Shown here: one piece after another, positions 28,786-51,686 of the stretch | How the letters are laid out: each line of letters starts with the position of its first letter | How positions within the stretch are numbered: position 1 is the stretch's first letter | Assembly: GCA_044892525.1 (NCBI GenBank) | Contig: CM097885.1 | Span: forward strand, 19,718,001 to 19,782,000 | Direction: 5' to 3' | Length of the DNA: 64,000 bases | Source: Schmidtea polychroa | Taxonomy: Eukaryota | Program-made: the position numbers and the translations under genes | Notes under the pieces: model-generated | The model's input: the letters and a program-made list of their open reading frames with translations, nothing else | Told to the model about the DNA's origin: nothing | The model's database searches: none

Positions 28786-31700
28786 ATGTCTCAATTTAGT
28801 GAAAATGTTCTAAACGGAATTGTCACCGCGAATATAGTCGACAGCCTCAATTTCCTGATCAATCGAACTGAACAAATCATTGAAGGTGAACATATCGATT
28901 ATCAGCAAATGATGGAGATAGAATCCCTGGAAACCAAGAAGTATTACTTCAATAGAATATTTCAGTGTCTTTTCGATGAAGACATGAAATGGACAAGGAT
29001 AATTGTAGGATTCACCTACATGAAGATAATCATAGAAAAAAGTTTATGGGACTCCGAGCACTATTATCAGTGGTCTTTAGAAGTAAAATTAGTAGTGTGG
29101 TTATATACCCAACCAAAACAGCCCCCCAACAAAAACATGCCTCCAAATCACTTAAGCTATTAGAAAAACAACCTAAAACTTATACTTTTATAGTATTTTA
29201 ACCCTATATTTTGAAAACAACCACCCTTAATGACTCTAACTGTTTTAATCTTTAAAGCTTCAAACTCAAAAGCTTCAAACTAAAAAGAGAATAGAAAAGA
29301 AAATGGCATTATGAAAAAGTTAGAGGGCTATTTGATCTTTATCAGATTATTGATTTTAAATTATATAAATTAAAAAATAAATGAAAAATAGTAAAACTGC
29401 TCTGAGAGGACAGTGGTATTTTTTTTTTTTTTTTTTTTTTCACTGTCCCCTCAACAGTTTTTTTTGATCCGGATCATTTTTTTTTATTCAACCTCTTTCG
29501 TTTATCAAATCTCTTCCAATATACAAGCTGGCCAGGCTCATAATCAGAATCAATTCGATAATAGCAGCACACCTTATTATTCGCTTCTCGCTCGAATACG
29601 ATTTCATCGGCGTTTTAAGTGTGCTGCTCGAAAGTACAAATGAATTCGAAAGCGAATCCGAAAGAGGTCCGAAAACAACCGAGAAAGGGATCGATCCGGG
29701 GGTGTTCGAAAGACAGGTGGCGATAATTACCGGTTCGCCACCATCACCCGTTTCAATATTTTTTTTTCATATTTATGTTTAAAAAATAAAATAATAAATA
29801 AAATAAATAAAATAAATAAAATAAAATAAAATAAAAATAAATAAAATAAAATATAAATCTAAGATACCCACACTATTATTTTCAAATTTTTAATATTATT
29901 TTATGTTGAAAAAAAACTAACCTCAGATGTGATTTGAACCGCTAGCATTTTGAACCACTGTGTCAGTCTAGCCCACTGCGCTATCTAGGATTGGATTTTT
30001 GTCATTTTTTAAATTTTTATTATAAAAAATGAATAATATAAATCTTAAAAAATAAAATGAAAACAGGGTATCCAATAAAAAATTTTTTTCTAAAAATGAA
30101 TTGTAATATTTGCAATAAAGTTTTTAAAAATAAAACTGGATTAATTTCTCACTTAAAATCGAAAGCTCATTTATTAAAAGAAAATAATCTTAATGATACA
30201 AATTCAAAACTTTGTCTTAAATGTAAAGGAAGATTTCTACATTCTGGATATAATAAACATTTTGAAAATTGTATCGGGAAAAATAGAGAAATATTTACAT
30301 GTCCTCATTGTAACTTTTCAACAAAACTATATTTCTATTATTTAGAACATAGAAAAGAATGTAAAAATAAAAAACAAAATTCTGACGATGAGGAATGTCA
30401 TTCAGAAGGAGAGCCTGATCATGTTGAAAGAGAAAAATATAACTGGGATAATTTTAATCATATAGATGAATTTCAATTAAAAATTAATGGGCCTGCAACT
30501 CCTGGAGAATATATAAATAAAAATAAAAAAAATATTAAAAATTCTTTCACTGAAGCTTTAAAAAATTATAAACCGACAAGGTATAATGTTATAAATATAA
30601 AATTATAATCAAAGCAAAATACTGGCGAGGAGCAGAAGAAAAGACAACACCCTTAGATGTTGAAATTGGAATACCTTTTAAATATTTATTTTCAATTAAA
30701 GGATTTGATAAAACCATCAAAGAAATAATTAAAGCAGCAGAAGCAAAACAAGAGGAAGTAGAAAATGAATTAGGAGATTCAAACTTAGTATTCAACTCTT
30801 TCCAAACTTTAGTGATTGATTATTGGAGAGGATTACCACCCAATCCTAAATCTTATATTCCTACACCCTTTAAATCTAAAAATGTTATAAATGTACAGAA
30901 TAATGATAACAAATGTTTCATCTGGTCAATACTTGCACATTTACATCCTCAAGCAACAAATCCCCAAAGAGTTTCAAAATACAAACAATATGAAAATGAA
31001 TTAATATTTCCCAAAGGATTCAAACACCCAATGAAACTAGAAGACATTCCAGAATTTGAAAAATTAAATAATCTTAAACTTAATATTTATGAACATGTTA
31101 TAGGGAAAGAAATTATTCCAATTTATATTTCAGATAGTGGAACCAAGGATAACGGAGCACAGGACAACGAGATATATCTTTTAATCTTGGAACAAGAAAA
31201 TAATCAACATTATGTTTTAATAAAAAACTTTCAAGCTTTTACATCTCCAGAGAATCCAACTAGTGGAGGAGGAACATGTAAAAGATGTCTTCATTATTCA
31301 ACAACTAAAAACTCTATGATTAAACATACAAGATTTTGTGAAAAAGATGATCCAGCTTTAATTAAAATGCCTAATAATCCCAAGATGTATTTTAAAAACT
31401 TTTCAAATTTACTACAAACAGTTGGAGTTCTTTATGGTGACTTTGAATCTATAAACCATAAACAAGATTTGGTTTATCAATATTTAAAAATAATAGAAAA
31501 AAATAAACTCATGGATTTATGGAACTCCTCAGGAGAGAAGATGAAACCAGAGAGGATGAAAGCCTTTCTAAGAAAAAGAAATAAACCTAATAGTGTTAAA
31601 AAAACTAAACAATTACCATCTGCTTATAAATTATTATTTAAAAGTAATTATCCTGAACTCATAGAATCTAGAGAATATTCAATTCTAGGAGGTACCCCTG

Positions 31701-34700
31701 AAGAAGTCTTGAATCATTTTACTAAAAATATAAATGATCTAGAACATGAAATATTTAAAATATTAAAAACAAAGTATCCTCAAAATATTTCTAATCAACA
31801 ACAACAAGAATATGAAAATACTTCCAACTGTTGGATGTGTAAACAGAATATTCTTCCTGATGAAAAAGTTATAGATCATGATCATTTAAAAAAGGAAAAT
31901 AATTATCGAGGAGCAGCTCATAAAAATTGCAATCTTAATTGCCATACTCCTAAATTTATACCTGTTATATTTCATAATCTTTTTGGATATGACATACATC
32001 TATTTATTAAACACCTCGCAGCAAATGCTAAAAACTCTTTCAAAGTTATCGGCTTAACAAAGGAAAAATATAAATCAATTGAATATGGAAAATTAAAATT
32101 TATAGACTCGTTAAACTTTCTCCAAATGTCTTTAGATGCAGTAGCAAAAACAATGAAACCAGAAAATTTTAAAATCACTCGAGAATTCTTGGAAAAAAAT
32201 AATATTCCTCTAGAAGAATATCCTACATGTTTAGCAAAAGGAATATATCCTTATGACTATGTTGACTCGTTTGAAAGATATAATGAAACAAGTCTTCCTA
32301 ACAAAGAAGATTTCTTTTCAAACTTACTACAATCAGGGATTACAGATCAAGAATATTCTCGAGCATTAAAAATGTGGGAATTATTCAAGTGTAAAACTTT
32401 AGGAGAATATACAAGTATGTATTTATCCTTGGATGTTTATATTCTAGCAGATTGCTTTGAAGAATTTACAAACTCTTTTGTTCTTAAACCTTATAATTAT
32501 ATAACTGCACCCTCTTTAGCTTGGGATACTATGTTATATACCATTTGGACTTCAAATATAGAAGATGCTGATAAAATTATAGATCTTTTAACTAACCTCG
32601 ATATGTTTAACCAAATTAAAACAAACATTAGAGGAGGAGTCTCTTCAGTAATGGGGAATAGAGAAATAAAAGCTAGAAATGCAATAACTATTAGCCGAAG
32701 ACTATCTAAACACCCTGATGATCCATATATGAAAATTAACAATGAGGAATTAAAAGAATTATTAGAAACAATGAAAAATCCTATATTTATACTTTATATA
32801 GATGCAACAGCTTTATATTCAGGAATTATGACTCAATTTTTACCAATGGGTGATTTCACTGAAATAGAGAACCCAACAGATGACCTTATGAAAGAAATAC
32901 TTTCAACATCGAAAGATTCTCCAATAGGTTACTTTATAGAATGCGACCTCGACTATCCAGATGATATAAAATCAGGAACAAGATATTTTCCTTTAGCTCC
33001 CATAAGAAGAAAGATTGATATCAACGAACTTTCTGAATGGCAAATCTCACAAGATAAACCTCCAACAATGAAACTTCTTTGTGATCAAACAGATCGAAGG
33101 TTTTATCTTTGTCACTATAGACTCCTCCAATTTTATCTTTCACGAGGAATGATATTAAAAAAAGTTCATAGTGTCATAAGATTTAAACAAGCTCCATTCA
33201 TGAAAGCTTTTATCGAGGAGAACATTAGGTGCCGAAACATTGCAAAAAGAGAAGGTAATCTTTTTAAAGATAATAATTATAAAATTTTAAACAATTCAGT
33301 CTTTGGAAAAACAATGGAGAATGTTGATAAATATACTCATATTGAACTCCTAACAAATACTACCAAAGATATTAAGCGTTATAATCGCATGCTAGGAAAG
33401 CCTACATTTAAAAACGCACAAGTATTTTCTGAAAATCTTACTGCAGTAGAATTAAAAAATTATGAGAAAACATATAACAAACCAATATTTATAGGGTTTA
33501 CAATTTTAGAACTTTCAAAATTACAAATGTATGAAACATATTATAACATCTTACAACCTATATACGGAGCAAATATATCAATGCATGCAATGGATACAGA
33601 TTCAATGTTTTTAACAATAAGAACTCATGATTTACAAAAAGATATGAAAGAAAATCCTATACTTTCAAATTTAATAAATTCATCTGGAGAACTATTTTCG
33701 TTTAAAGATGAAAAACCTTTTACTCCTATAGAAAATGGAATATTTATTCGTGCTAAACAATATTCATACGAAACATTTAGAAACCCTGAATTTATAACTA
33801 GATCATTTATATTTAAAACTCCAGAAACAGAAGAAACCATTACACATAGATATCCTATATTTCCTAAAGGACCAGAGGGACAAGAAGAAAAACCTGTAAA
33901 GGATAACAGATGTAAAGGAATACAGAGAGTGGTTGCAAAGAATCTTTCTCATCAAGATTATATAGATACATTGAATCCAAATCATAAAGATAAAATTGAT
34001 GAAATACATCAACTTAAAAGCGAAAACCATGATATTCACTTGATAGAATCTCAAAAAATATCATTATCAAATTATGATGATAAGAGATTCATACTAAGTG
34101 ATTTAAAGACAACTCTACCTATTGGAAATAATTTAATCCCTATAATAAAAAATCTAGAAAAGTTGAATAAGTTATATGATACAAAGATTACTGATCTTGA
34201 TATTTATAATGTTGAAATTATTTATCCCGAGAGAGAAATCGAGAAACCTTTATATTCTCAAGTTTTTAATCCTATATGTTTAGAACTTAAATATTTTAAT
34301 ACTGATCCTGAATATATAAAAGGTCTAAGTGATAAAGAATTTAAAGATCATAAATTAATGATTCATAGGTTGGCTTTCAACCATAACTGAAACCAACGAT
34401 ATTTAATTTTTTAATAATAAAATGTCGACAATTAATTTAAGCAACTATAGCAACCTGATCTACTTTTTTAAAAATACACCCATTTTATAAGTAAGAATTC
34501 TTTAACCATTTTTCTCGAGATGTTTTTTTATTACTTATAACATTAGCCACCATGCCCTCCCTTTTTAATCTTATAACCTCATTCTTTATATCTTGTATTA
34601 TTTGATTTGATTTCATTATTTCTTCGTCTGTCAGGATTCCATCTTCCAAAGCTTTTAATTGAAATAAAAATAATTTAGAGATTCCTAATTCTATTGATAA

Positions 34701-37700
34701 ACAAACTTCTCTATAAAAACTTTTCTTTTTAGAAGTATAAGATAATGAAACTATTTCAGTTAAGAAACCATCAGCCACAGAAATACTTCCAAGTATTACA
34801 GGTGCAAGAGTAACAACTGGTAAAGTTATGGGTAAAATAACTGTTAATATTGCAGATGCAAATCCTAAAGAATAACCTATAACTTTTAAAACTGTATTCC
34901 CTTTATTCCATCTATTTTTAATTTTTTTATAATGCTTTAATAAATCTTGTAAATGTAAGGTTTCTGATTTAAATTCTTTTACTCTCATAATTTCAAGTTC
35001 TGTGGGAGCCGAGGCCTTGGAAGAATAATATCCTGATGATCTCAATTCTGGGTAAATATTTTCTTCTCTTACTTCTTCCATTTTAATAATTAAAAAAATA
35101 AGACTTTATTCTTCTGAGCACCATCTGGCACCAATACTCGGATATCAAAAGAAACTCTTGTTGAGAGGATATCTTTATACAATTCTCTCAATGCTTTACG
35201 AACTTCATCAACATCAACCTTTTTTTCATAAAATATTAAATCTATATATTGTACAAGTGAACTAGAGAAATGAATATTCTTACTTTTAACTTTATGTAGT
35301 CCATGTGAATGAGTATTAACATACCAATCTCCGTGTGGTAAATCATAACTAGTCATTATAACATCACCCTTTTCAAGCTTACTATTATAATCACATTTCA
35401 CAAACCATTTCATTCTTTCATTATCATCATCAAACAAAAAGAAATAAGGATCAATAATTTTTACAACCATAAAAACACCCCATTCTTTACTGTTTGTTGT
35501 TATTAAACTTGGTTCTATAAAATGTTTATATGTATGGGGTAATAATGTTTTATTCTGTTCTAATTCAGCAGCTCTTTTTCTAATACTATGTGTGGTGTTA
35601 ATGTGTGTTCCATGAGACTCTAAATTTGAAATTCTTTTATTAAATGATGTAATCATCTCATTTATTATTTTATATATTGTATTAAATTTAGTATTCATAA
35701 TTTGTTTATCTTTAGAATTTAATATAGCAGTATTTAACTTTACAACTTGTTCAGTTAACAGACTTTGTAACTTGTCAAATTTATCATTAAATCGTTGTTC
35801 GATATTATTAAGCTTTGATTCCATTGAATCAATTTTTGTTGTTAATGAACTTTCAATTCTTGTTGTTGTTAAATCAGTATATTTTTTAACACCATCTACA
35901 TATTTCTTATTAACTGCATCAGCTTCATCAGTTGGAAAAGATAATTCTTTTATCTTGTGTCCATTTAAAATTAAATCACCCTTCATTGAATCACCTCTTT
36001 CATTAATATATTTATTTTCTGTTAAAGTTAATATTTCTTCTGTATTAAACCCTGTTTTTATTGTTCCACCACCTCTATTACATGGAATATAAGAACTCAT
36101 TTATTAATAATTTAAAATGAATCTTCAAACTTGTTTCAAATGTAAATACATTGAAATCTCTTCTCCATTAAAATCAATCAATTCTCCTTCTTGATTAAGA
36201 ATTTTAAAATTAATATCCATAATATATTTTCTACATAAAGGTAAATAATTTGGAGGATTCATTCTTTCAACTATTTTATATCCCATAGGAACTGTGTTTG
36301 AGGGAAAGGAATATAAAACATTTGTTTGTTTACCATTATTATAAGAACCTGTTATACAATCGCAATGAATATTTATTGTGTTTGTATTTATTATTTTTAT
36401 AATATGTTCTGATGTTATTATTTTATCTTCTTTTATTGTTATATCCATAGGTTTAAATCCTAAAACTGTGTGAAAGAAACAATTATCTAAAAAACTAATT
36501 TTTATATTCTTCAAAGTCATTACACATTTTGAAGTTGGTATATCCATTTTAATTTTAATACCTTCATTTGTTTTTTTAGAAAGTATATCATTTAAATCTT
36601 TTATCTCATATGTCCCAGGTTCTATTGTTATAATTTCTGGTTTATGATCATCACGAGTTTGAATAGTAAATTTATTATTATCTTTAGTTATATTAAAAAT
36701 AGTATTATAAGCACAAAACCATAATAGCCCCAATTCATAATTTAAATTTTGATCTAATTTAATTGAATCTTGAAAGTTTATAGTAAACTCTGATTCTTTT
36801 GAATTTATAGATAAAGTTCTTGAATATTTATCTGACATTATGTTTACCATTTTTTTTAAATTATCTTCCGGAGGGTTGTGAAGCTCCATTTCTTTAGTAG
36901 TAAATTCATATAGTAAAAATCCTTATAGTAAAAATCCTTATAGTAGAGATTCTAGATCATTATAAATTTCTTGAATTATAGATTCAAAATCCTGCGTATG
37001 CCCCTTTCCCTCTCCCTTATTCAATCTATACAAAACATATAAACTTAAAATACCACATATTTTAGTATTCAAAGGTTGAACTTGTAAAGAGTTAAAAGTA
37101 TAACCATTTGGGGAATCAATCGGAGAACCCCTCAAGAGATAATCTTCAACTTCTTTAGTAGGTTTAATCCCAAAAGAATCAAAGTAGATAGATTTCTTAT
37201 ATATACAAACCCAATGAGATCCTTTTTCATTTGAATTTTGATAATTGATTATTATATTCAGGGGACTCTCCAGACTTGATAATTCATCATTCATTAATAT
37301 TTTAATTTTTAAATTTAAATAATTTGCATAATCTTTTAAATCAAAATTTGTTTTTGCATTTATTCCAAATGTTTTTAAAAAATCTAATATTGAAGGAGTC
37401 ATTTTGTATTTTAAAACTTCGTATTTATAACTTCGTATACTTATTAAATTTATCTTTTGAAATTATTCCTTGTTTTAACAAATCTTTAGAAATCTTTAAA
37501 ATATCAGAATCTAAATTATTATGTTCTGCTTTCCTTGCAGCTAATAGTTTTCTTAATTCAATAAAAAGATTGATGGGATTTGGTTTACCACCTTCACTAA
37601 TTAATCCCTCTCCCTCTGTAACAACATAACCCTTTTCATTTTTATTTAAATAATTCTTTAAATCTTGAATATATTTTGCTTTAGAACTAGCTCTTATTAA

Positions 37701-40700
37701 TCTTATTAAATTTAAATATTTTTTAATTTCTTCAACATCATCTGAAGAATATCCACAAAGTAATCTATAAAAATCATCTGTAAATTCAAAGTCTAAATAT
37801 TCATTATTATAAACATTTTGTGAATGAATACGTGATTTATTTTCTGAATTTTAATATAAAGTAAAGTTTTGTTTATTAATTGTTATTATTTGATATCCTT
37901 CAGTATTAGTATTAAATGTGGGTCTAATTGAAGGAGGTAAATCATCTCTAATTTTAGGATCAACTTTAAGAGGTTTTGTTTTTAAAACATTTCTTCTTCT
38001 TCCACATTAGAAATTCTTCTGCGTTTTCTTTGATTTCTTTCAGAATGGTTTTCACTGGATTCTTTTTCTTTATCCTGCCACTCTAGTTCTTTTATTTTTT
38101 GTTTTTTATCTTCTAACTCTTTAAATTTTGCTTGCTCATTGAAATCTTCCAACTCTTTTATAGCTTTAATTGTTGGCCCCTGTTGTTGTGTTATTACCTC
38201 ATTTAATATTATAGATTCAGCATGTTGAGTTGTATCTTTTTTATTATATTTATCTTGTTCTGATTGTAATTTTTTTAAAAGTGCTAATCTTTCTTCATAT
38301 ACCATTTTAATGGTATCAAAAATGGTATCATAGTTCGAAGGGCTTCAAGTATAATCCTTTACCATTTTTAGTTTTACAAAGGCATCCATTCTTTAAAGAT
38401 TTACATATTTTTTTTAAATCTTCTTTATCTTTTGAAGATAAAGATTCAGAAGTAGAAATTTGATTTTTTAAAAAATCATTTAAACCTCTACCTTTATAAG
38501 GATCAAGATAGAGACCTTTGCCCTGAGACTTTTGCCGACTCCCCTCATATGGATTAAGATAGAGACCCTTTCCAACGGACACTCCCCCTTTAGCTTGCCC
38601 TACCTTCTTCATTGAATCGATTTCAGTTTGTAGTTTTTCTTTTTCTAGATTCTTTAGCTTTTTGAACTGTAGTTGCAATTCCTCCAGCTATTCCAGCAGC
38701 ACCTGATAAACCAGCAATGATTGCAGGTATTAAAGCAGCTAATGGAAGAATGCCACCTTCTTTAGCTTCGTGGAGCTTCGCTCTAACTTGTTCTTTTACA
38801 TGTTTTCCAATAAAATATTTTTTACCATCATTTACTACTGATTTATTTTTATTTGAATTTATTAATTCTTGCAAAGATTCTTCAGTTGTCATTTTATAAT
38901 AAACAAAATGGATGTTTGGAAACCAATTTTAAATAGACATAAGAGTAAATTTAATAATAAAGTATTTCCTGATAATTTTAGATTATTAATTGTTGGTTCT
39001 TCTGGATGTGGAAAGAATGTACTTGTTTTGAGAATGTTACTTGAAGATGATTTTTTAGATTATAATAATTTAATCTTTTATTCTACAACCATAAATCAAC
39101 CAGAATTACAACTTTTGAAATGTGGATTTGAAAATAAATTAACTAAAAAAGCAATAATTGATATTTTTAAAAATCAACATAGGTGTCCTGAAGAAGTTTT
39201 TCAACCTTGTGATATGGTTGATTGGCATAAGGAAAAGATTTTAGAATCAGATATTAGTAATAAAAATGATTATATTTGTGAAGAAGGGCAGGAGGCAATT
39301 CAAGTTTTATTCTCTAATAAACCTGAAGATGTTTTACATTGTGATTTACTTCCTAAAGATAAAAAGAATCTAGTTATATTTGATGATGTTGTTAATATGA
39401 AAAATCAAGAGATTCAAAAGAGTTACTTTACACGAGGTCGACATAATAATTGTAATGTTATTTATATATCTCAAACATATTATGCTTTAGATAAAAATTC
39501 AATAAGAAATAATTCCAATTGTTTTATATTTTTTAAATTAGATCGCCGTGATAAGAATATGATTTATAATGATTTATTTTCAAATGTTGAACCTGATAAG
39601 AATATGTTTGATATGTTTGTTGATAATCATTGGAAAGAAAAATATAATTATATTTATTTGGATAGAGAAGAAGCTGAAATATGGAAAAGTTTGTTTTAGG
39701 GCTTGTCGACTTAAAAATCTGTTTTCTGTAGTTCATTATTATAAAATCTACCTAATATTTTTTCATTATTTAAATCAAAGATGCTATATGTTATTGGAGT
39801 TGTATAATGTATTTTATTTATAATAAAAATTTCATTTGTCCATCTTGCTGTGAATCCTTTTTCAAATTTATTTTTATATTTAAATATTCTTACTCGGTCA
39901 CCAATTTTAAACTTTGGTTTTTCAATAACATCATTTTCAATATTTACCACTTTAATGGTTTCAGGCTTCATGGAAGCATTTAAAGGTGTTAATTTTATAG
40001 AACTATGTACATCATTATTATATTCATTTACAATCTTTTGTAACAATTCATTATTCCATTTTTGTTTTCCAATAGCAGTAAAATATTTCCACATTTTATT
40101 TTTTAATGTTCTATTTAATCTTTCAACTACGACTGCTTTTCCTTCGTTTTCTGTTGAATATAATTTAATATCATTTTCATTTAAAAACTTTGTAAAAACT
40201 TTGTTATAAAATTCTGTTCCTTTATCACACCATAAATATTTTGGGATTCTTTGATTTTCTTCAAATATATTTTCAAATGCTTCTGTAATAGAATATCCTG
40301 TTTTATTTTCTAAACATCTTGCAGAAGCAAATCTTGTATATAAATCTATTACAGTTAAAATTATTTTATATTTTTCAGGGTCTGATGATTTGGGCATAAA
40401 GACTAAATCTGCAGACCATGTTTGATCTTTTTCATGTACTTGAACTTTTAAATATTTTTTATTTTTTCTAAATTCATGGTGTAATTCCTTTGCATATTTT
40501 ATTTCTGATTCTGTTGGGGTTTGTAAACTAGTCTTGGCTGTACTCTCGAGGGATCTTTCAATCTCTGCTTGTTCGATAATCTTTTTATAAGCAACATCTT
40601 TTGCTTTCCTAGGAAGTCTTGCACCCATGGTGATCGGACTGTGTCCTAAGCCTATGAAAATCTTACCTTTCATTGCTAATTTAACTAGAGCTCTTTGAAT

Positions 40701-43700
40701 CTTTTCTTGGGTTGATGGATTTTGGATACTATTTAAATCATGTATTAAATTCACATCTGCAACATGTCTATCTCTAAGATTTGTTGAATTGTATGCAATG
40801 TCATGTTTTAAAGCTGCTTGATCAATTCTATTTATTGGTTCTTCTCCTTGTTTGGGATTATTATTTTCATCTAATCTAATATCTAGACGTGTTCCTGGTC
40901 CAGTATAGTTGTGTTTAAATAAATGTCTTTCACCTGGATATTTTTCTGTAGTAAAAGGTTTTAATATTGAAGATGTTGTTTTTGAAGATTGCAAATCGCC
41001 TCCAGCTCGTGGAATTAGGTCACCTACTGTATGTTTTTTAGTTTTAAGATGACTTGGTTTATGATGTCTTGTAACTTGACAATTACAAGTTTCACATCTC
41101 CAATAGGGTTTATTTAAAGACATTTTAAAATGTCAAAATATCAGGGATTATATCAAGAATCTCCCCTAACATTTTCGATTATTGAAATCTTTCCACCATA
41201 TAATTTCATTTCTATTTTCTTTTCTTCTAATATTAATGTATATACTTTAGCTTTAAAATTAGAATCCTTTGTTACATGAAGTGTAACATCAACATTATTT
41301 ATGGCTAATCGATCATCTTGGTCTGATACATTTATACAAAATATAGAATATAAATTTTTGAAATCTTCTAAACTTAATTGCGGTTCAACATTGAAATCAT
41401 AACATGTTTCAATATAATTTAGATATGGGAATATGTTTTCATTATTTTCAATATTAAATTCCATTCTATTTATTGGATAATAAGAACTATTTAATTGAAT
41501 TTGGATTGTTTTTAAATTATCATCTCCAATCTTTTGAATAAATAGATTGTTATTTTTTTGGAAAGATGAATCTGTTTCTTTGAATCCAATCAAGATATAT
41601 CTTGGTCGGTATGCTAAATTTGCTACCTTTATAGAATATGTTGAACCCTCTGTCATACTAAATTCACTACAGATTCTATTTAAATAATTTACATTTATAG
41701 ACTTGTTGGAATTTAATCTTTCAAGGAGTTTGATTTCAGAATGTGGGTTTAATGTCCATTCAGGTATATGTAATTCAAGTGTTGATAATTTTAATTTAGC
41801 TTTTGTATCTACAGCTCCATAGAACAATCTTTTATCACCTTCTACTCTATTACAGATGAATTCTATAAAAACATTATGAAGTATACGATTATAGTTTTGA
41901 AGGAATCCAAACAAGTGTTTTAATTCAAAATAACCTTCAAATTTTTTAGATTTATAAAGTTCAGCTCTTTTATGGTAACCATGGTTTACATCTAAACCAT
42001 CTTTATCTAAATCCCCTTTATTAACATCAGGAATCCAACCTGTTAATTCACCATATTCGTTTTTATAATCACAACCAGTCAAAATAAAATTTAACATTGT
42101 AGAATATACTCCCGGATGCAAAACAGTTTCAATTTCTGATGATCCTAGTTTTAATCTCATGTTGGAGAATAAATTTGGAAAGAAATTATTTTCTAGGGTT
42201 ATATCTTTGTTTGCTTCAATTTCTAATTCGATTTTATAATATAATTTGGCATTACAAATATCTATAGGGTTTGATGTTTGAAGAGATTGAAAAACTATAT
42301 CACCCCTACGATTTAAGTTTGCAATAGATCCTGAAATTGGAGAGATTTTTAAAATATCATTTTTTTTAATTTCATGAGTAAATTCTTTATTATAATCAAG
42401 ATTTAATTTATTTTTTTCTTGAATTTTAAGATTTATGTTATTCATTTTTATATATTAAAATTTACACACACACAATAGGATTAATTAAATATATTATGTA
42501 AGCCATTATAGCGGAGTGGGAATAGGCTTCAATTTTATCACCGGGAGTACCGGGTTCAATTTTCGATTTTGGTCAATTTTTTTCGATATTTTTTTTCAAC
42601 GGAATCTGATTCAGCGTACTGATTTTAGTATATATTTAAATTTTCAGATCGATCTGAGTGGTAGTTGTCGAGAAAATGAATAATTAATTATTAATTTCAT
42701 CAATAAATAGTCACACATTAACAACTTATTTTATATTGAGTATAGCTTAGTGGTAATAGCACTCGACTGCATTGCCAATACCAATGGGTTCAAATCCCAT
42801 TTCGGTCATTTTTTTCAAATTTTTTTTTAACGAAATATTGATCAGCATACTCGATTTAGTACTTGTACAAATTTTTAAGGAGATTGGTCAACGGCAACCT
42901 GTCTTTCGAACACCCCCGGATCGATCCCGGTAATGTGCACATTTATTTCTCGGTTGTTTTCGGACCTCTTTCGGATTCGCTTTCGAATTCATTTGTACTT
43001 TCGAGCAGCACACTTAAAACGCCGATGAAATCGTATTCGAGCGAGAAGCGAATAATAAGGTGTGCTGCTATTATCGAATTGATTCTGATTATGAGCCTGG
43101 CCAGCTTGTATATTGGAAGAGATTTGATAAACGAAAGAGGTTGAATAAAAAAAAAATGATCCGGATCAAAAAAAACTGTTGAGGGGACAGTGAAAAAAAA
43201 AAAAAAAAAAATACCACTGTCCCCTCAGAGCAGTTTTACTATTTTTCATTTATTTTTTAATTTATATAATTTAAAATCAATAATCTGATAAAGATCAAAT
43301 AGCCCTCTAACTTTTTCATAATGCCATTTTCTTTTCTATTCTCTTTTTAGTTTGAAGCTTTTGAGTTTGAGGCTTTAAAGATTAAAACAGTTAGAGTCAT
43401 TAAGGGTGGTTGTTTTCAAAATATAGGGTTAAAATACTATAAAAGTATAAGTTTTAGGTTGTTTTTCTAATAGCTTAAGTGATTTGGAGGCATGTTTTTG
43501 TTGGGGGGCTGTTTTGGTTGGGTGGAGATAGAATCCCTGAACATATCGATTATCAGCAAATGATGGAGATAGAATCCCTGAACATATCGATTATCAGCAA
43601 ATGATGGAGATAGAATCCCTGGAAACCAAGAAGTATTACTTCAATAGAATATTTCAGTGTCTTTTCGATGAAGACATGAAATGGACAAGGATAATTGTAG

Positions 43701-44000
43701 GATTCACCTACATGAAGATAATCATAGAAAAAAGTTTATAGGACTCCGAGCACTATTATCAGTGGTCTTTAGAAGTAAGATTTCTTTTATAATCTACATT
43801 TTAATAATATTAATTTCTAGATAATCAAGTCCAAGTTTACCCCATGGATAGAAGCCAATGGCGGATGGGGTGTATTAAATAAACTGGCCTGCAATTTTAA
43901 AGAAACTGATGAAATCAAAAGAAAAATGAAAAACTATATAAAACTTACAACTGGAGTTGTTATAATGTATATTTTCTGTAGATATATGAATAAAAATTAA
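28786..44000 (+). CDS. Bcl-2-family protein of P2; exon 1 28786-29082, exon 2 43821-44000; P3 sits in the intron
   Basis: BH1-like LFDEDMKWTRIIVGFTY, BH2-like PWIEANGGW, C-terminal hydrophobic tail LTTGVVIMYIF. The phase-0 GT..AG join gives 158 aa. Confidence 0.8.
29909..29990 (-). ncRNA. tRNA-like Pol III-type unit 1 (P3)
   Basis: A box TAGCGCAGTGG, B box GGTTCAAATC, T8 terminator. No convincing anticodon stem. Confidence 0.55.
30057..34390 (+). CDS. polB: Protein-primed DNA polymerase B of P3 with N-terminal zinc fingers (one frameshift near 30600)
   Basis: C2H2 CNICNKVFKNKTGLISHLKSKAH. Motifs LYGDFES, IFHNLFGYD, KGIYPY, YIDATALY, KILNNSVFGK and MDTDS. The frame of 30812-34390 is open back to ~30595. 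Confidence 0.92.
34485..35081 (-). CDS. P3 membrane-associated protein with central hydrophobic hairpin
   Basis: 198-aa ORF with hydrophobic segment VIGYSLGFASAILTVILPITLPVVTLAPVILG. Function unknown. Confidence 0.7.
   Translation of the reverse strand: MEEVREENIYPELRSSGYYSSKASAPTELEIMRVKEFKSETLHLQDLLKHYKKIKNRWNKGNTVLKVIGYSLGFASAILTVILPITLPVVTLAPVILGSISVADGFLTEIVSLSYTSKKKSFYREVCLSIELGISKLFLFQLKALEDGILTDEEIMKSNQIIQDIKNEVIRLKREGMVANVISNKKTSREKWLKNSYL
35090..36100 (-). CDS. P3 fibre-like/coiled-coil virion protein
   Basis: GDSMKGDLILNGHKI..DEADAVNKKYVD fibre-type motif followed by a coiled coil. Confidence 0.6.
   Translation of the reverse strand: MSSYIPCNRGGGTIKTGFNTEEILTLTENKYINERGDSMKGDLILNGHKIKELSFPTDEADAVNKKYVDGVKKYTDLTTTRIESSLTTKIDSMESKLNNIEQRFNDKFDKLQSLLTEQVVKLNTAILNSKDKQIMNTKFNTIYKIINEMITSFNKRISNLESHGTHINTTHSIRKRAAELEQNKTLLPHTYKHFIEPSLITTNSKEWGVFMVVKIIDPYFFLFDDDNERMKWFVKCDYNSKLEKGDVIMTSYDLPHGDWYVNTHSHGLHKVKSKNIHFSSSLVQYIDLIFYEKKVDVDEVRKALRELYKDILSTRVSFDIRVLVPDGAQKNKVLFF
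36125..36889 (-). CDS. P3 minor capsid protein (penton-like)
   Basis: YNTIFNI, IEPGTYEI, INIHCDCITGSY..VLYSF and IDFNGEEISMYLHLK. Confidence 0.8.
   Translation of the reverse strand: MELHNPPEDNLKKMVNIMSDKYSRTLSINSKESEFTINFQDSIKLDQNLNYELGLLWFCAYNTIFNITKDNNKFTIQTRDDHKPEIITIEPGTYEIKDLNDILSKKTNEGIKIKMDIPTSKCVMTLKNIKISFLDNCFFHTVLGFKPMDITIKEDKIITSEHIIKIINTNTINIHCDCITGSYNNGKQTNVLYSFPSNTVPMGYKIVERMNPPNYLPLCRKYIMDINFKILNQEGELIDFNGEEISMYLHLKQV
36938..37402 (-). CDS. P3 adenain-type cysteine protease
   Basis: GSHWVC, YFDSFG, Q..CG catalytic pattern. Confidence 0.9.
   Translation of the reverse strand: MTPSILDFLKTFGINAKTNFDLKDYANYLNLKIKILMNDELSSLESPLNIIINYQNSNEKGSHWVCIYKKSIYFDSFGIKPTKEVEDYLLRGSPIDSPNGYTFNSLQVQPLNTKICGILSLYVLYRLNKGEGKGHTQDFESIIQEIYNDLESLL
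37410..38305 (-). pseudogene. P3 ORF of unknown function, disrupted
   Basis: ORF 37982-38305 continues through a frameshift and stop to ..LRKLLAARKAEHNN..LLKQGIISK. Confidence 0.55.
38328..38892 (-). pseudogene. P3 core/membrane-lytic precursor-like protein (frameshift near 38650)
   Basis: KEGGILPLAALIPAIIAGL and repeated GKGLYL, consistent with adenain-cleaved virion proteins. Confidence 0.6.
38908..39699 (+). CDS. P3 A32/FtsK-like DNA packaging ATPase
   Basis: Walker A IVGSSGCGKN, Walker B LVIFDD, FTRGRHNNCNVIYISQ. Confidence 0.92.
   Translation: MDVWKPILNRHKSKFNNKVFPDNFRLLIVGSSGCGKNVLVLRMLLEDDFLDYNNLIFYSTTINQPELQLLKCGFENKLTKKAIIDIFKNQHRCPEEVFQPCDMVDWHKEKILESDISNKNDYICEEGQEAIQVLFSNKPEDVLHCDLLPKDKKNLVIFDDVVNMKNQEIQKSYFTRGRHNNCNVIYISQTYYALDKNSIRNNSNCFIFFKLDRRDKNMIYNDLFSNVEPDKNMFDMFVDNHWKEKYNYIYLDREEAEIWKSLF
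39711..41123 (-). CDS. int: P3 zinc finger-phospholipase A2-retroviral-type integrase fusion
   Basis: NYTGPGT..NRIDQAALKHDIAY (parvoviral-type PLA2) followed by WSADL, WCDKGTEFY and VERLNRTLK (DDE core). Confidence 0.9.
   Translation of the reverse strand: MSLNKPYWRCETCNCQVTRHHKPSHLKTKKHTVGDLIPRAGGDLQSSKTTSSILKPFTTEKYPGERHLFKHNYTGPGTRLDIRLDENNNPKQGEEPINRIDQAALKHDIAYNSTNLRDRHVADVNLIHDLNSIQNPSTQEKIQRALVKLAMKGKIFIGLGHSPITMGARLPRKAKDVAYKKIIEQAEIERSLESTAKTSLQTPTESEIKYAKELHHEFRKNKKYLKVQVHEKDQTWSADLVFMPKSSDPEKYKIILTVIDLYTRFASARCLENKTGYSITEAFENIFEENQRIPKYLWCDKGTEFYNKVFTKFLNENDIKLYSTENEGKAVVVERLNRTLKNKMWKYFTAIGKQKWNNELLQKIVNEYNNDVHSSIKLTPLNASMKPETIKVVNIENDVIEKPKFKIGDRVRIFKYKNKFEKGFTARWTNEIFIINKIHYTTPITYSIFDLNNEKILGRFYNNELQKTDF
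41153..42445 (-). CDS. P3 major capsid protein (double jelly-roll)
   Basis: 430 aa. NNFFPNLFS, LKHLFGFL, RPRYILIGF, QLNSSYYP and LYSIFCINVS pattern, plus genomic context. Confidence 0.8.
   Translation of the reverse strand: MNNINLKIQEKNKLNLDYNKEFTHEIKKNDILKISPISGSIANLNRRGDIVFQSLQTSNPIDICNAKLYYKIELEIEANKDITLENNFFPNLFSNMRLKLGSSEIETVLHPGVYSTMLNFILTGCDYKNEYGELTGWIPDVNKGDLDKDGLDVNHGYHKRAELYKSKKFEGYFELKHLFGFLQNYNRILHNVFIEFICNRVEGDKRLFYGAVDTKAKLKLSTLELHIPEWTLNPHSEIKLLERLNSNKSINVNYLNRICSEFSMTEGSTYSIKVANLAYRPRYILIGFKETDSSFQKNNNLFIQKIGDDNLKTIQIQLNSSYYPINRMEFNIENNENIFPYLNYIETCYDFNVEPQLSLEDFKNLYSIFCINVSDQDDRLAINNVDVTLHVTKDSNFKAKVYTLILEEKKIEMKLYGGKISIIENVRGDS
42502..42583 (+). ncRNA. tRNA-like Pol III-type unit 2 (P3)
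   Basis: A box TAGCGGAGTGG, B box GGTTCAATT, T7 terminator. Confidence 0.5.
42735..42815 (+). ncRNA. tRNA-like Pol III-type unit 3 (P3)
   Basis: A box TAGCTTAGTGG, perfect T-arm ATGGG-TTCAAAT-CCCAT, T7 terminator. CTGCATT occupies the anticodon-loop position but its stem is unpaired. Confidence 0.62.
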
Positions 44001-44525: not shown

Positions 44526-44945
44526 TTAAAATAGTTGTGAAAGTCTAGCAGACATAATTTTCCAAATTGGAGAATACACATCATTATTATCAACTTTATA
44601 TCCTTGGATTGCAATTGTTATATACCAATTTTCGTTTTCTTTGAAGCTGATTTCATCAAAGGAATCATAAAATCTTGCATATCGGTTGTTGAAAAATGCA
44701 TGTTGATTACAAGATAGATTCGTATTCAACCGTTTGAAAACCTCATCAATAGATTTAACATCTATCGTTGAAAGCGTGCCGGATAAAAATTGAAATTGGG
44801 TAAGAATTAGCTTGATCGGTGACACCAATTTCATATTGATTTCTTCTTTTAAAAAATACATTTTATAGTTGTGGAACATTTGAACAGGTTGTACAAGTTC
44901 TGGAACAACTTTCCGCTTTTCAGTGCTTGAAATTTTCTTTGTCAT
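44526..44945 (-). CDS. P2 hypothetical protein (139 aa)
   Basis: ATG-started, complex-composition ORF in a co-oriented cluster. Confidence 0.65.
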   Translation of the reverse strand: MTKKISSTEKRKVVPELVQPVQMFHNYKMYFLKEEINMKLVSPIKLILTQFQFLSGTLSTIDVKSIDEVFKRLNTNLSCNQHAFFNNRYARFYDSFDEISFKENENWYITIAIQGYKVDNNDVYSPIWKIMSARLSQLF

Positions 44946-45224
44946 CGTGAATTATGATTAAAATGAAATGTTACAGGGATTTTATACCTATGACTAATGT
45001 TTATCAACCAATCAGATTGCTGCATGTCTTTGTTTAAATTGCATGTCTTTGTTTAAATTGTATGTCATTTGCATTAATGTTGCATTAATGTTTTTATTAT
45101 AAATATTGTTTTTATTATTATTATTTCTAATATTACTATTATTACTTATATTATTACTATTTCTATTATTATTTCTATTTCTATTATTTCGATTTACAAA
45201 AACAAAACAATTCAACATAAAAAT

Positions 45225-45631
45225 TTATTTTGATACAATCTGACTCGAGTGGTTATTTCTCAGAGTCTTCACCAAACACCATTCAACATATTGTTGATAA
45301 CGGAAATTGCAGCAGCTACATCCGAAAATGCAAGGAGCCTCTGGTTTCATTTCTTTCATCACCCTTCCTATCTTGACATCCCATAGAAAGGTGTTTATTA
45401 TATCGAATATCCAGATTCGTGTTTGGTTGTATACTAAATCCGGAATGATAGCTGGATCTCTATCTTGTAGAATTTCATTTAATTCCGGATAATAGAAGCA
45501 TAATCTTTGCAGGATAATTGATTGATATTCATCTGTAAAAGTATATATTAATGTAATAATAAAAATTTGAAATTACCATAATTTGCATGCTCTTTCATTG
45601 AGGTGATTGCGGAACTTTGTATGTTGTACAT
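45225..45631 (-). CDS. P2 hypothetical protein, two exons (intron 45533-45576), Cys cluster
   Basis: MYNIQSSAITSMKEHANY|DEYQSIILQRLCF..PCIFGCSCCNFRYQ..VSK*. 44-bp GT..AG intron, 120 aa, absent from the ORF track. Confidence 0.65.
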
Positions 45632-45706
45632 TTTTGTTGAATAAATGATTTCTAAACAGAAAACATATTGTTTAAAACAATCATTAACCAATTAGAAATT
45701 AACCAA

Positions 45707-46144
45707 TTAGAAATTGACCAATGAAATTATCTCATTTCGAACATTGTCAACAAATTCCCTATACTCCAAATTTCTCAACCCCAGCATGACAACCTTTCCA
45801 CTAGCAAACACGTTGACACATATAGGGTTATATTTTAATAGTCTTAGTGCCGGAAACAATTCCGGTTCAAACATACAATCACATTTTTTCGACATGTTAT
45901 ATAGATTGATACTATGTCCCATATCCATAGTAACGGTAATTGATTGGATTTTAATATTATTTATTCGATATTGTAATTTATTAATATCCAAGGGTTTCTT
46001 ACATCCCATGATTCTACATTTACCAGTCTTGAAAAATATTATCGGGTATTTCCCGCTTCTATCGATAATTTGCTGGGGTTTTCCTGGTGGGAACCTCATA
46101 TTTGTTACATCAAAATTTCCTCGATAATTTATATTTGCTAACAT
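45707..46144 (-). CDS. TBP: P2 TATA-binding-protein-like protein (145 aa)
   Basis: Two TBP repeats: ANI..IIFFKTGKCRIMG and IQSITVT..INL..FEPELFPAL..VNVFASGKVVMLG. Confidence 0.85.
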   Translation of the reverse strand: MLANINYRGNFDVTNMRFPPGKPQQIIDRSGKYPIIFFKTGKCRIMGCKKPLDINKLQYRINNIKIQSITVTMDMGHSINLYNMSKKCDCMFEPELFPALRLLKYNPICVNVFASGKVVMLGLRNLEYREFVDNVRNEIISLVNF

Positions 46145-46247
46145 TATTAAATCATTTATGAAAATTAGTCTTTATATACAAATTAAGTACGAGTTCATTA
46201 AATCATCGAATATAAACAAATACACATATATTTTTAAAATTTTTAAA

Positions 46248-46874
46248 ATGGAATTAAGAAATGATGCAGTATACCAAATCGTTGGTCCGAGTGGTAGTTG
46301 AAAAACATTATTTGTTTGTAAATTACTAAAATCAAATTTATTCAAATCAAAATTCAACAGGATTTATTGGCATAGGGGTGCTGATGAAGAACATGGATTA
46401 ACTCAATCAAGTTTCTGTAAATTAAAAAACATGAAAATAGTAAAGGGATTCGATAAAAACTGGTCCAGCCGATTAAAGAAAGGTGATGTCATTATTATCG
46501 ATGATTTGTATCAAGAAGCTAATAAAGAAAAAGATTTTAATAATTTATTTACAAAGATCAGCAGACATGTCGGTGTTACAGTTATTTTCATAACACAAAA
46601 TCTTTTTCATCAAGGTGGGGCACATCGAACACGTAATTTAAATGTACAATATTTAGTTATTTTCAAGAATCCTAGAGATGCAACAGTGATTGATTTTCTT
46701 GCACGTCAAGCATACCCTAACAATCGTAATTTTCTTATCAGTGCATTTCAAGATGCTACAAAAATACCTCATGGATATATATTTCTTGATTTCACACAAC
46801 AATGTCCCGATGATTTACGAGTAAAAACAGATATTTTCAACCCAAAAGGTGCCATGGTTTATAAACAAATTTGA
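46248..46874 (+). pseudogene. P2 packaging ATPase with a nonsense codon in Walker A
   Basis: MELRNDAVYQIVGPSGS*KT (TGA at 46299), in frame with VIIIDDL, FTKISRH, IFITQNLF and FKNPRD. Confidence 0.9.
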
Positions 46875-46892
46875 AAACCTCTATGAATAATA

Positions 46893-47420
46893 ATGTTTCT
46901 AAAAGCAAGGGTGAAAAATATTAGGAAATTAAGAAAAAGTATTAGAAAGAGTATTAAAGTTCCAAAAGTTCCACCAACAACTAGTTATACACCATCTAAA
47001 AAACTTGTAACTGAAAATTTCTCTGCAATGAATCTTATTTCGAAAAATCCTAAACCTAAACGTAAAACCCGTAAAACTCGTAAAACCGGTAAAAAAGTAG
47101 TTAAAAATCATCGCAGTTTTCCATTTTTTAATGCATTGTTAAAGGCCCCGAGTATGAAAAGAATGAATATATTGCAATCATTCCCAAACTTTGTTGTCGA
47201 TGATTTACTCAATATTATACTTAAAGTAGTCAAAGGCAAAATTAAAATCAGTAAATCAAAAAAGCATTTATTGAGCAAACATAGAAAACCATTGTTATCT
47301 TTAGTAAATAATAAAAATCGTAAGCAAATGAGTAAAATTATATATAAACAACAAGGTGGATTTATTGGTGCATTGATACCTCTGGCATTATCATTATTAG
47401 GTGGGGTTACACAGTCATAA
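46893..47420 (+). CDS. P2 basic core-like protein
   Basis: Very K/R-rich, ending QQGGFIGALIPLALSLLGG (putative protease site plus amphipathic tail). Confidence 0.7.
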   Translation: MFLKARVKNIRKLRKSIRKSIKVPKVPPTTSYTPSKKLVTENFSAMNLISKNPKPKRKTRKTRKTGKKVVKNHRSFPFFNALLKAPSMKRMNILQSFPNFVVDDLLNIILKVVKGKIKISKSKKHLLSKHRKPLLSLVNNKNRKQMSKIIYKQQGGFIGALIPLALSLLGGVTQS

Positions 47421-47423
47421 ACA

Positions 47424-47651
47424 ATGGGTGCTAATCCTTCATTGCCCGACATTAAATTTAATTTTAAATCTTCTTGTTGTAATGGAGAAGATTTGGACGA
47501 ACCCAGAAGACGAAGCCGGTTTCGGTGGAGTGGCAAAATTAAACAAAAGAGTTCCGAATTCGAAAAAAGAAACCCAGAAGTGGTTATCAGATCAGCTTGC
47601 GTACAGTTTGAACAAACCAATGCGGAAAAGATTTCCAACAAGAGCCTATAA
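47424..47651 (+). CDS. P2 small ORF overlapping the integrase start
   Basis: 75 aa starting MGANPS, identical in Q (63482-63709). ATG follows directly after the previous stop. Confidence 0.4.
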   Translation: MGANPSLPDIKFNFKSSCCNGEDLDEPRRRSRFRWSGKIKQKSSEFEKRNPEVVIRSACVQFEQTNAEKISNKSL

Positions 47652-47869
47652 AACATTTGGTATTGACGATTTATGGCAAATGGATTTGATGGAGATGATA
47701 CCCTATTCGAAAATTAACAATGGGAATAAATATATTTTAACATGTATTAATGTATACAGCAGATTTGCACGAGCAATACCAGTCAAGGCAAAATCTGCAG
47801 AAGAAATGTCCAAGGCAATTAATATTTTATTTAAAGATGGACATCCTAATAACTTGCAAACAGATTTAG

Positions 47870-47928
<59 letters not shown>

Positions 47929-48570
47929 GTTATTATTATTTTAGGTAAAGAATTCTACAATAGCAAAGTTAAGCAAATCCTCGATAAACTGAAAATAAAT
48001 CCTTACTCGGTACATTCTCAATACAAAGCTGCCCATGTTGAAAGATTTAATCGAACATTGAGAGATAGATTAAAGAAATTGTTCGTGCATCAAGGGAATA
48101 AAAAATGGGTAAATGCTTTACCGAAAATAATAAAAAGTTATAATCATTCATCACATCGAGGACTGAATGGATTGAGACCGGTTGATATTACATCAAAAAC
48201 ATTCTATTCTAAGAAATCTGTAAAAATTGCAAAACCTAAATATAAACTCGGTGACCATGTTAGAATTAGTAAAATTAGTGCATCACCATTTATTAAAAAT
48301 TTTGATACAAATTGGAGTGATGAAGTCTTTGTAATTTCAAAAATAAATACTAAACAGAATCCTGTAATGTATGTCATCAAAGACAGTGATAATAATATTG
48401 TACAAGGGAAATTTTATGAGCAGGAATTACAAGTCATTCCTCCTCCAAAAGTATTTAGAATTCAAAAAATATTGAAAACTAAAAAGGTCGGCAAGGATAA
48501 ACAATACTATGTCAAATGGCATGGTTATCAAAACCCGTCATGGATATCAGCAAAAGACCTAGTAAAGTGA
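47482..48570 (+). CDS. int: P2 retroviral-type integrase with chromodomain; intron 47870-47944
   Basis: WQMDL, QTDLG|KEFY, VERFNRTL and YYVKWHGY. Confidence 0.92.
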
Positions 48571-49589: not shown

Positions 49590-49944
49590 TATTATTAGTA
49601 TGTATAGTGGTAGCCAATCTGGCGGTGAATTACCATATTTTATTGGTAAACAGTACGGATCGGGATGGTTGAGAACAATTGGTAGATTTGCATTGCCTAT
49701 TCTTAAACGTATTGGTAGTTTTGGTATGAAAACTGCAAAAGATGTTATTATGAATGAACAGAAAATATTACCATCTCTAAAAACAAATGCTTTAGCTGAA
49801 TTAGGGAAAGTTTTACCAGGGGTTGCAGGTATGTTTCAAAAAGAAAAATCTTCAGCTCCAGCTCATGCTCCAAAACGTAAAAGACATGGAATATCACGTA
49901 TAAACAAACGAATGAAAGGACATGGAACTATATTTGCAAAATGA
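49576..49944 (+). CDS. P2 small virion protein with amphipathic helix
   Basis: QYGSGWLRTIGRFALPILKRIG and a basic tail. Occupies the usual position before the capsid gene. Confidence 0.75.
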   Translation: MANSDIISMYSGSQSGGELPYFIGKQYGSGWLRTIGRFALPILKRIGSFGMKTAKDVIMNEQKILPSLKTNALAELGKVLPGVAGMFQKEKSSAPAHAPKRKRHGISRINKRMKGHGTIFAK

Positions 49945-51133: not shown

Positions 51134-51563
51134 ATGTATATTGAAACACAAAAAGTTGTCATGGAGTAAGTTGTTTTTTATACTCTGGATTTATTTAAGT
51201 AGTTCTGTTCAGGTCAATAAAATCGGAAAACAGATGTTGGGAAATGAATTTGCTGGAGTTTTTCCTCTTGATAAAATTCCATATTTGAGCAATAATCAAG
51301 CAATAATCGTCAATACTCAATCGTCTCATCTTGGTGGAGAACATTGGATAGCTATATACGTTAAACCTGGTAATATATTAGTGTTCGATCCTATGGGTTT
51401 TTATTACCCGGCTTTGTTGATATCAAAACTACAAACAATGGGAAAACCTATTGTGTATAATAAAACTATGTTTCAAAATCCATTGACCCAAACATGTGGT
51501 CAACATTGTTTAGCTTGGTTATTGTACAAAAAATTTGATGTTTTAAGAAAAATGGATGTTTAA
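51133..51563 (+). CDS. P2 adenain-type cysteine protease
   Basis: FAGVFPLD, NTQSSHLGGEHWIA, FDPMG and Q..TCGQHC. Confidence 0.9.
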
Positions 51564-51630
51564 TAAAATTTGATGTTTAATAAATGTATCCTTTCCTTTG
51601 TTGTTGTGATTAATATTATTAATATTATTA

Positions 51631-51665
<35 letters not shown>

Positions 51666-51686
51666 TTTATATTATTATTATTATAA

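Follow-up and report, generated by a model that had tools for sequence, protein, structure and literature searches.

Do the ends of a mobile element carry promoters for RNA polymerase III (Pol III), and if so, is it the RNA or the occupied DNA that would serve the element? The question is raised by a stretch of 64,000 nucleotides from Schmidtea polychroa (contig CM097885.1, positions 19,718,001 to 19,782,000; hereafter the window), which contains P3, a Polinton/Maverick element with terminal inverted repeats (TIRs). An initial annotation had placed three tRNA-like units just inside both TIRs of P3, and proposed that they encode small defence-modulating RNAs akin to the virus-associated (VA) RNAs of adenoviruses, or else act as chromatin barriers. 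We found all three units, here called U1, U2 and U3, where they had been placed, each with an A box, a B box 43-44 nt further on and a run of T7-8, and all pointing outward; a further unit, U4, had been missed. As far as sequence can tell, the units of P3 are real, family-wide and lineage-specific. The reading that we favour, at slightly less than an even chance, takes the three flagged units for decayed tRNA-gene promoters, which probably serve as DNA elements occupied by TFIIIC and Pol III, and not via RNAs. The units are laid out as follows.

29909..29991, minus strand: U1, tRNA-derived; A box 29983-29973, a partial duplicate B box, full B box 29940-29931, T8 at 29916-29909
42457..42898, plus strand: cassette homologous to the ribosomal DNA (rDNA) spacer, with U2 and U3; left junction at AAAATT microhomology, right side cut by the deletion in the window copy
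42502..42583, plus strand: U2; A box 42509-42519, degenerate B box 42553-42562 (terminal C missing), T7 then T8
42735..42815, plus strand: U3; A box 42743-42753, B box 42787-42797, intact T-arm, T7 then T9
29385..29752, minus strand: left copy of U4; A box 29740-29730, B box 29697-29687, one internal T4, structured tail, terminal hairpin, T-runs
42899..43260, plus strand: right copy of U4; B box 42918-42928 and tail kept, A box deleted in the window copy
43071..43131, plus strand: hairpin of the U4 tail, 61 nt, G.U-rich, of the size of a microRNA precursor, RNA-stable on the outward strand only

The boxes were judged against the type-2 Pol III consensus, an A box TRGYNNARNNG and a B box GWTCRANNC 30-60 nt apart, as given in PMC12498455, which terms the terminal C of the B box critical. 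Both boxes fit in U1 and U3; U2 is without the terminal C of the B box and U4 has one mismatch in its A box. Oligo-T terminators follow (T7-8 in U1-U3, an internal T4 and distal T-runs in U4) and are conserved in all units, and U1 and U2 have an unusual A-box extension in common. The combined A-box/B-box/T-run motif occurs four times in P3, as compared with 0.01 on average (at most 1) over 100 composition-matched simulations, and does not occur in the rest of the window outside P3. As had been expected, the units score poorly as tRNAs: ARAGORN reported no tRNA anywhere in the window, the Rfam tRNA model scored only U3 (26.7 bits, below the 29-bit cut-off), and no unit has a tRNA cloverleaf with acceptor, D, anticodon and T stems. 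A diverged tandem duplication of ~235 bp carrying U2 and U3 was likewise confirmed, but U1 proved to be part of the TIR itself and not to lie just inside it. These observations support the prediction that the units are Pol III type-2 promoter units belonging to the element family. By their sequence features they are not equivalent: U1 is a TIR-borne unit, U2-U3 an optional cassette and U4 a unit resembling an RNA gene.

The P3 family is young and abundant. A 34-nt TIR word, the 3' arm of the U4 hairpin, has 2,180 exact copies in the host assembly (781 Mb, four large contigs), from which we estimate roughly a thousand elements, and the 40 scored matches per end are all 97-100% identical. The units recur in other copies. 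Among 90 right ends chosen by their capsid gene, U1 was present in 86, U2 in 50, U3 in 48 and a short open reading frame (ORF) in 45; these ends are 90 of the 97 top capsid-gene matches and not a random sample, U2-U3 occurring in six of the first 30 ends, and U2 in 44 of the 60 that followed. The 83 sampled ends that keep the TIR core all carry one or more of U1-U3, and many have two to four units; per end there are one to three copies of U1, arrayed in tandem and 233 bp each. The distance between the first A box and the capsid start codon is 40-79 nt in 69 of the 86 ends measured. In the window copy ~0.3-0.8 kb has been deleted at 42898 and with it the right-hand U1, the U4 A box and the short ORF, while 28 of another 29 right ends, selected for their similarity in U2-U3, go on with an optional 72-codon ORF and one to three U1 copies before the TIR core. 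We conclude that the P3 ends are modular arrays of predicted units with a period near 235 bp. The short ORF (L003:2043-2261) encodes a charged, coiled-coil-like product of 72 amino acids, faces outward between the capsid start and U1, and has no Pfam match at cut-off.

A potential explanation for such recurrence is that the units are the heads of host short interspersed elements with target-site duplications (TSDs). This can be ruled out because all 30 position-ordered U1 matches, out of 1,083 for one allele class, sit in P3 ends. For the U4 hairpin, 29 of 30 position-ordered matches have the same context and keep the U4 head and U1, the last one keeping the outer TIR. Copies of U2-U3 outside P3 lie in the rDNA spacer or in spacer-derived repeats only.

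A pointer to how the flagged units may act is the variation within U1. For this and the other constraint analyses we used capsid-ascertained copies, not loci picked by unit similarity. Across 105 copies, per-site diversity came to 0.059 for the A box (one R position) and to 0.002 for the full B box; the acceptor/T-stem halves reached 0.276 and 0.245, and the stems carry many haplotypes while the boxes stay fixed. The U1 cloverleaf is only 46% paired and shows no double-sided changes; U1 and U2 fold no better than shuffled sequences (z scores 0.86 and 0.27). We conclude that in U1 the putative promoter has been kept and the tRNA fold lost.

We favour DNA elements because the U1 boxes are near-invariant while its stems are diverse and its cloverleaf is lost, because U1 and U2 fold no better than shuffles and every sampled end with a TIR core keeps a unit, because the first A box is 40-79 nt away from the capsid start in most ends, and because U2-U3, a sequence of the host rDNA spacer, came into the family with two or more sets of boundaries. 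According to this reading TFIIIC, TFIIIB and Pol III would dock at the P3 ends beside the inward-facing starts of the polymerase and capsid genes, TFIIIC on the A and B boxes loading TFIIIB just upstream, in the 40-79 nt that separate the units from the inward start codons. With the Pol III machinery in place, a barrier-like zone poor in nucleosomes would persist, which would slow the spread of PIWI-directed heterochromatin (trimethylation of histone H3 lysine 9, H3K9me3) over the P3 promoters. Extra units would be gained by tandem duplication (one to three U1 copies) and by template-switch capture of the rDNA-spacer Pol III cassette, and the ~75-nt transcripts would be by-products stopped by the T-runs, the neighbouring U4 being predicted to be a true RNA gene. 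Clustered tRNA genes act as chromatin barriers. In S. mediterranea, according to PMC8532177, Polintons are repressed by SMEDWI-2 at the chromatin level and are targets of PIWI-guided H3K9me3. The barrier half of the initial proposal fits the variation pattern of U1; the VA-RNA half does not suit the three flagged units, which are ~75 nt long, with no stable fold in U1 or U2 and freely varying stems in U1, and of which U2-U3 are a piece of host rDNA spacer found in only about half of the sampled ends; the small-RNA idea fits the unflagged U4 better.

The second kind of unit leads out of the element and into the host rDNA. The cassette matches a fixed part of the rDNA spacer at 97-100% identity, the figures for the single units being 99-100% for U2 and 96-99% for U3. 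All rDNA spacers examined contain U2-U3, whose position between the 28S end and the 18S start is constant; in the seven of the 14 rDNA stretches that also contain the 18S 5' end they lie ~3.1-3.3 kb upstream of it, and in L283 and L280 the 28S end is seen too. The spacer (L283:4051-4855) holds four to five tRNA-like Pol III-type units (U0, U2 and two to three copies of U3), all facing against Pol I. Two of the spacer copies of U3 pass the Rfam tRNA cut-off, at 38.8 and 32.4 bits, and the 5' half of U3 is closest to host tRNA-Cys among the four isotypes compared; tRNA-Phe, considered as a donor, was not supported over Cys or Lys in the same comparison. Diverged U2-U3 paralogues occur as an 80% copy in a 1,245-bp repeat and an 88-91% copy on C2, and both retain spacer flank that is absent from the main cassette type. 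In P3 the cassette has sharp junctions that show microhomology and fall into at least two kinds, one on the capsid side and one beyond U4 with longer rDNA ends. Since the spacer has more units, the paralogues keep spacer flank and the junctions are sharp and of two or more kinds, U2-U3 were probably captured from the host rDNA spacer into the Polinton, although there may have been only a single capture, with trimming and relocation afterwards. In the open literature on rDNA spacers, tRNA-like sequences, TFIIIC and planarian intergenic spacers, as far as it was accessible, we found no description of tRNA-like Pol III units in rDNA spacers, and the cluster in this host is apparently undescribed so far.

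Other repeats were seen in the same surroundings. Insertions in the 28S rDNA (L283:7720-10000) and a fragment of a retrotransposon with a restriction-like endonuclease (L270:2420-2700) adjoin spacer copies, and we take them from their motifs to be R2/NeSL-like. Host tRNA genes form very large tandem arrays (L051, L074, L153, L294), with periods of 424 bp for Lys, 278 bp for Arg, 281 bp for Cys and 255 bp for a Phe-type gene, and pattern matches numbered 993 for the Cys and 1,917 for the Phe-type array.

The unit that had escaped notice, U4, opens the TIR core with its A box, has its B box 43 nt further on and continues as a structured tail, which predicts a Pol III RNA of ~365 nt; its head is not a cloverleaf. 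The tail folds with a z score of -3.67, and the whole 372 nt with -7.8 outward and -6.0 inward. The z score of the 61-nt hairpin is -4.17 for the outward RNA, +0.19 for the inward RNA and -1.08 for DNA, and on the last of these values a role as a DNA hairpin was rejected. In 43 copies it is 99.9% paired, seven of its 25 pairs varying on one side only; all five common changes keep pairs, which is not significant (p ~0.1 under a transitions-only null). A single T4 precedes the final terminator region in 73 of 81 U4 copies, a scarcity of T4 that falls short of significance once local composition is considered (P 0.32). U4 matched no Rfam family, and words of the hairpin were absent from the planarian and flatworm microRNA (miRNA) supplements of PMC5671611 (eight files) and PMC3840308 (four files); other catalogues may hold it. 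Among the units, U4 is the best candidate for a small-RNA gene.

Contigs assembled from runs that we guessed to be RNA cover U1 and the U4 tail (199 nt in X3, 256 nt in X8 from the same sample, and numerous short fragments in X1 and X2). Directly behind U1, one contig of X2 has 18 A's, as against A8 after none of 212 genomic U1 ends. Summed contig depth in X1 and X2 is far higher for the U4 tail than for the capsid gene, and in X4 it is flat; this measure cannot rank genes, its coverage breaks off at skipped repeats, and contigs show neither ends nor strand nor level. None of these contig observations was counted as evidence.

The element that carries the units is made up as follows.

29091..43523, no strand assigned: element P3, Polinton/Maverick, PLA2-bearing (alpha-adintovirus-like); left end intact (AGTAGT...), right end without its last bases
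29091..30050: left TIR in its full family form, spanning U4, U1 and the first seven codons shared with the start of the capsid gene, by alignment to a cassette-free right end
30057..34390, plus strand: zinc-finger ORF and protein-primed DNA polymerase B (PolB), start ~65 nt from the 5' end of U1, head to head
38908..39699, plus strand: A32-type packaging ATPase
39711..41123, minus strand: PLA2-like domain fused to a retroviral-type integrase
41153..42445, minus strand: double-jelly-roll major capsid protein, start ~55 nt from the 5' end of U2, head to head

P3 thus has the Polinton/Maverick core set of protein-primed PolB, retroviral integrase, packaging ATPase and double-jelly-roll capsid (Pfam PF03175, PF00665, PF04665 and PF21738), together with a PLA2-like match (PF08398) and a weak match to pX; PLA2 is a marker of alpha-class adintovirus virion modules (PMC8502044). 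Its nearest capsid relatives are 73-75% identical. The family ends in AGTAGT...ACTACT, with the AG...CT ends of the class, and a 6-bp TSD was found for the pair L340/L341, one of four pairs tried, the terminal motif not being found in the other three. The window copy is flanked by a direct repeat of ~200 bp (28883-29090 and 43568-43782) instead of a 6-bp TSD, and this repeat sits in a 125-codon ORF with a weak Bcl-2 match (E 0.003). MNNINLK forms the first seven codons at both ends of P3 (30029-30055 and 42425-42445), and at the left end these codons belong to an eight-codon upstream ORF ahead of the zinc-finger/PolB start. Elsewhere in the window, a split viral fusion glycoprotein gene at 1288-3199 on the minus strand (Pfam Monjiviricetes_fusion, E 6e-61) lies near a zinc-knuckle ORF and is probably inside a long terminal repeat (LTR) element, and an intronless ORF of 682 amino acids at 16098-18146 on the plus strand belongs to the retinol-binding-protein receptor (STRA6-like) family.

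The initial annotation had proposed conservation of position among related Polintons as a check; no such conservation was found. A rare sister subfamily, whose capsid is ~90% and polymerase 73-74% identical to that of P3, has short alternative termini; its elements integrate with a 6-bp TSD (pair L359/L360) with units at neither end, and none of seven such ends has a unit. In six 30-kb regions of a second Polinton family there were chance-like matches only, three of them sharing a single site within the polymerase gene and none with the U1 profile. Because the sister elements and the second family are without them, the predicted units are lineage-specific and not needed for integration. No unit was seen in 38 metagenome loci, a weak negative given that these are at most 52% identical, mostly 1-4 kb long and seldom reach the ends. 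Viral contigs contained no capsid relative and no U4 head, and one chance match to the U1/U2 A-box motif.

Several features of these relatives deserve mention in their own right. The sister termini (L142, L193, L347, L351, L356-L362) are segments of ~200-250 bp, mostly small inverted repeats AGTAGTG...CACTACT, which suggests that the termini are exchangeable. The second family (window 44526-63651; L296-L313) encodes a TBP-like protein, and in many of its copies inverted repeats of kilobase length hold two head-to-head PolB genes. In an adintovirus-like metagenomic contig whose capsid is 50% identical there is an intergenic match to Rfam mir-754 (L082:5436-5515, minus strand; 48.6 bits, E 8e-7, below the 84-bit cut-off), a possible candidate for a Polinton-borne miRNA hairpin.

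Some of these findings weigh against units acting as DNA. That sister elements integrate without units means that the units are dispensable. In U1, variation is as low in the AT-rich flank behind the T-run (0.057) as in the A box, so the conservation of its boxes is not unique, and the terminal stem, slid by one register, pairs 58% of cells. U3 keeps an intact T-arm and folds (z score -2.5), and in the C2 spacer paralogue it is identical at 66 of 66 positions while its flanks match at 52 of 81 and 103 of 114, which points to an RNA-level or conversion-driven constraint; the host paralogues differ in this respect, since U3 matches at only 51 of 66 positions in the 1,245-bp repeat. Inside P3, diversity is 0.006 in U2 and 0.005 in U3 as against 0.0045 in the spacer between them, and this lack of unit-specific constraint fits hitchhiking. 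In 15 of the 86 ends, moreover, the short ORF puts the first unit at least 300 nt from the capsid start.

Four readings, not fully exclusive, were set against these data. That the P3 ends are a battery of trans-acting small-RNA genes, resembling VA RNAs or TMERs, tRNA-miRNA-encoded RNAs of a herpesvirus, strikes us as doubtful overall, evenly balanced for U4 alone and unlikely for U1-U3. In this reading U4 would yield a ~95-nt RNA and a read-through RNA of ~365 nt, the hairpin being diced to a miRNA or soaking up Dicer, Argonaute or PIWI-pathway factors; we would think it improbable that U1-U3 give short decoys with a 5'-triphosphate and an oligo-U 3' end. U4 has a tRNA-type head followed by hairpins, as TMERs do according to PMC8223928, and its hairpin is specific to one strand and to RNA, almost fully paired with its seven variable pairs changing on one side, represented by 2,180 exact copies of its 3' arm and, in 29 of 30 position-ordered cases, accompanied by the U4 head and U1; the single T4 before the final terminators, the conserved terminators of all units and the folding of U3 point the same way. 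The hairpin, however, shows no double-sided compensation, and neither its pair-keeping changes nor the scarcity of T4 reach significance; the U4 A box has its mismatch, neither Rfam nor the two miRNA supplements hold a counterpart, and U1 and U2 lack a conserved structure through which they could act. The units might instead be passengers, pieces of host tRNA genes or rDNA spacer spread by a recent burst and homogenised between TIRs to no benefit. We think this unlikely for the set as a whole, while for U2-U3 alone we would not lean to either side, as they are missing from about half of the sampled ends and show no constraint of their own. Sister elements that integrate normally without units, a second Polinton family that is also unit-free, and the huge host tRNA and rDNA arrays as possible donors favour passengers. 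Against them stand the fixed U1 boxes amid many stem haplotypes, the outward orientation, spacing and terminators common to all units, the presence of the cassette in at least two places within the ends, the strand- and RNA-specific U4 hairpin, and the 2,180 matches of the unit-bearing motif as compared with seven of the unit-free one (patterns that differ in strictness).

Divergent tRNA-gene boxes serve the transcription of small nuclear RNA genes in trypanosomes, and the units could likewise contribute from upstream to the promoters of the inward Pol II genes, with TFIIIB/TBP, loaded by TFIIIC onto the AT-rich stretch that lies between unit and start codon, aiding the start of polymerase and capsid mRNAs. 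The TIR includes the first seven inward codons, 40-79 nt from the A box, U2 takes up the same position once the cassette is inserted, and the unit-free second family encodes its own TBP; but the ends with a first unit at 300 nt or more and the sister elements without any units make this reading very improbable. A combination of readings, in which a Polinton Pol III toolkit of one TMER-like RNA gene per TIR (a miRNA or silencing decoy) and a promoter-only insulator array, harvested in part from rDNA and more than once, drove expansion to about a thousand copies against PIWI silencing, strikes us as a little less likely than the small-RNA reading. Docking of the Pol III machinery on DNA at the P3 ends stays the reading that we prefer for U1-U3.

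Viral Pol III small-RNA genes (VA, EBER, TMER and those of bovine leukemia virus, BLV) are known from vertebrate viruses. Units of this kind in an integrated Polinton would extend the strategy to a far older branch of the adenovirus-related lineage. Adenovirus VA RNA I and II and the EBERs of Epstein-Barr virus are, like the P3 units, type-2 genes with an A box, a B box and an oligo-T end, the former in a related and the latter in an unrelated virus. VA RNAs are ~160 nt long and have a conserved fold, made up of an apical stem and a central domain, that binds PKR and Dicer; U1 and U2, by comparison, are ~75 nt and have no stable fold, and no unit matched a VA RNA family of Rfam at E<=1. The layout of U4, with its single internal T4, is closer to that of the murine gammaherpesvirus 68 TMERs, in which, according to PMC8223928, a type-2 Pol III promoter in a tRNA-like 5' part (with a triplicated A box) is followed by hairpins. 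U1-U3 differ in ending right after the tRNA-like part without a hairpin, the U4 head in having no cloverleaf, and the carrier here is an integrated Polinton of an invertebrate. The BLV miRNA cluster offers the case of an integrating element whose hairpin RNAs come from internal A and B boxes (PMC12498455), except that the BLV hairpin is the whole transcript while that of U4 lies ~200 nt behind a tRNA-type head in a predicted RNA. Predicted tRNA genes also occur in Polinton-class genomes, those of MELD viruses and polinton-like viruses (PMC8502044, Fig. 6), but these have other replicases, whereas the P3 units fail tRNA tests, stand in tandem in TIRs and in two cases match rDNA spacer. Searches of the open literature on Polintons, Mavericks and adintoviruses, combined with the terms tRNA-like, Pol III, B-box and microRNA, turned up no account of such units in what was accessible, subscription papers and Repbase reports being outside their scope.

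For the reading that we prefer, the nearest parallel is the barrier formed by tRNA genes or TFIIIC sites, where A and B boxes are clustered at the edge of a domain exposed to heterochromatin, the promoter is kept and RNA structure is irrelevant, much as in the P3 units. Examples are the HMR tRNA gene and the ETC sites of yeast, COC sites and mammalian tRNA-gene clusters. One genome here contains about 2,000 near-identical ends that either have or lack each module, which would provide a natural test of transposon resistance to piRNA-guided chromatin silencing, and the host rDNA spacer offers an apparently undescribed cluster of tRNA-like units directed against Pol I, from which P3 seemingly borrowed. 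The known barriers are host loci; by analogy, P3 would be a mobile element that carries barriers of its own.

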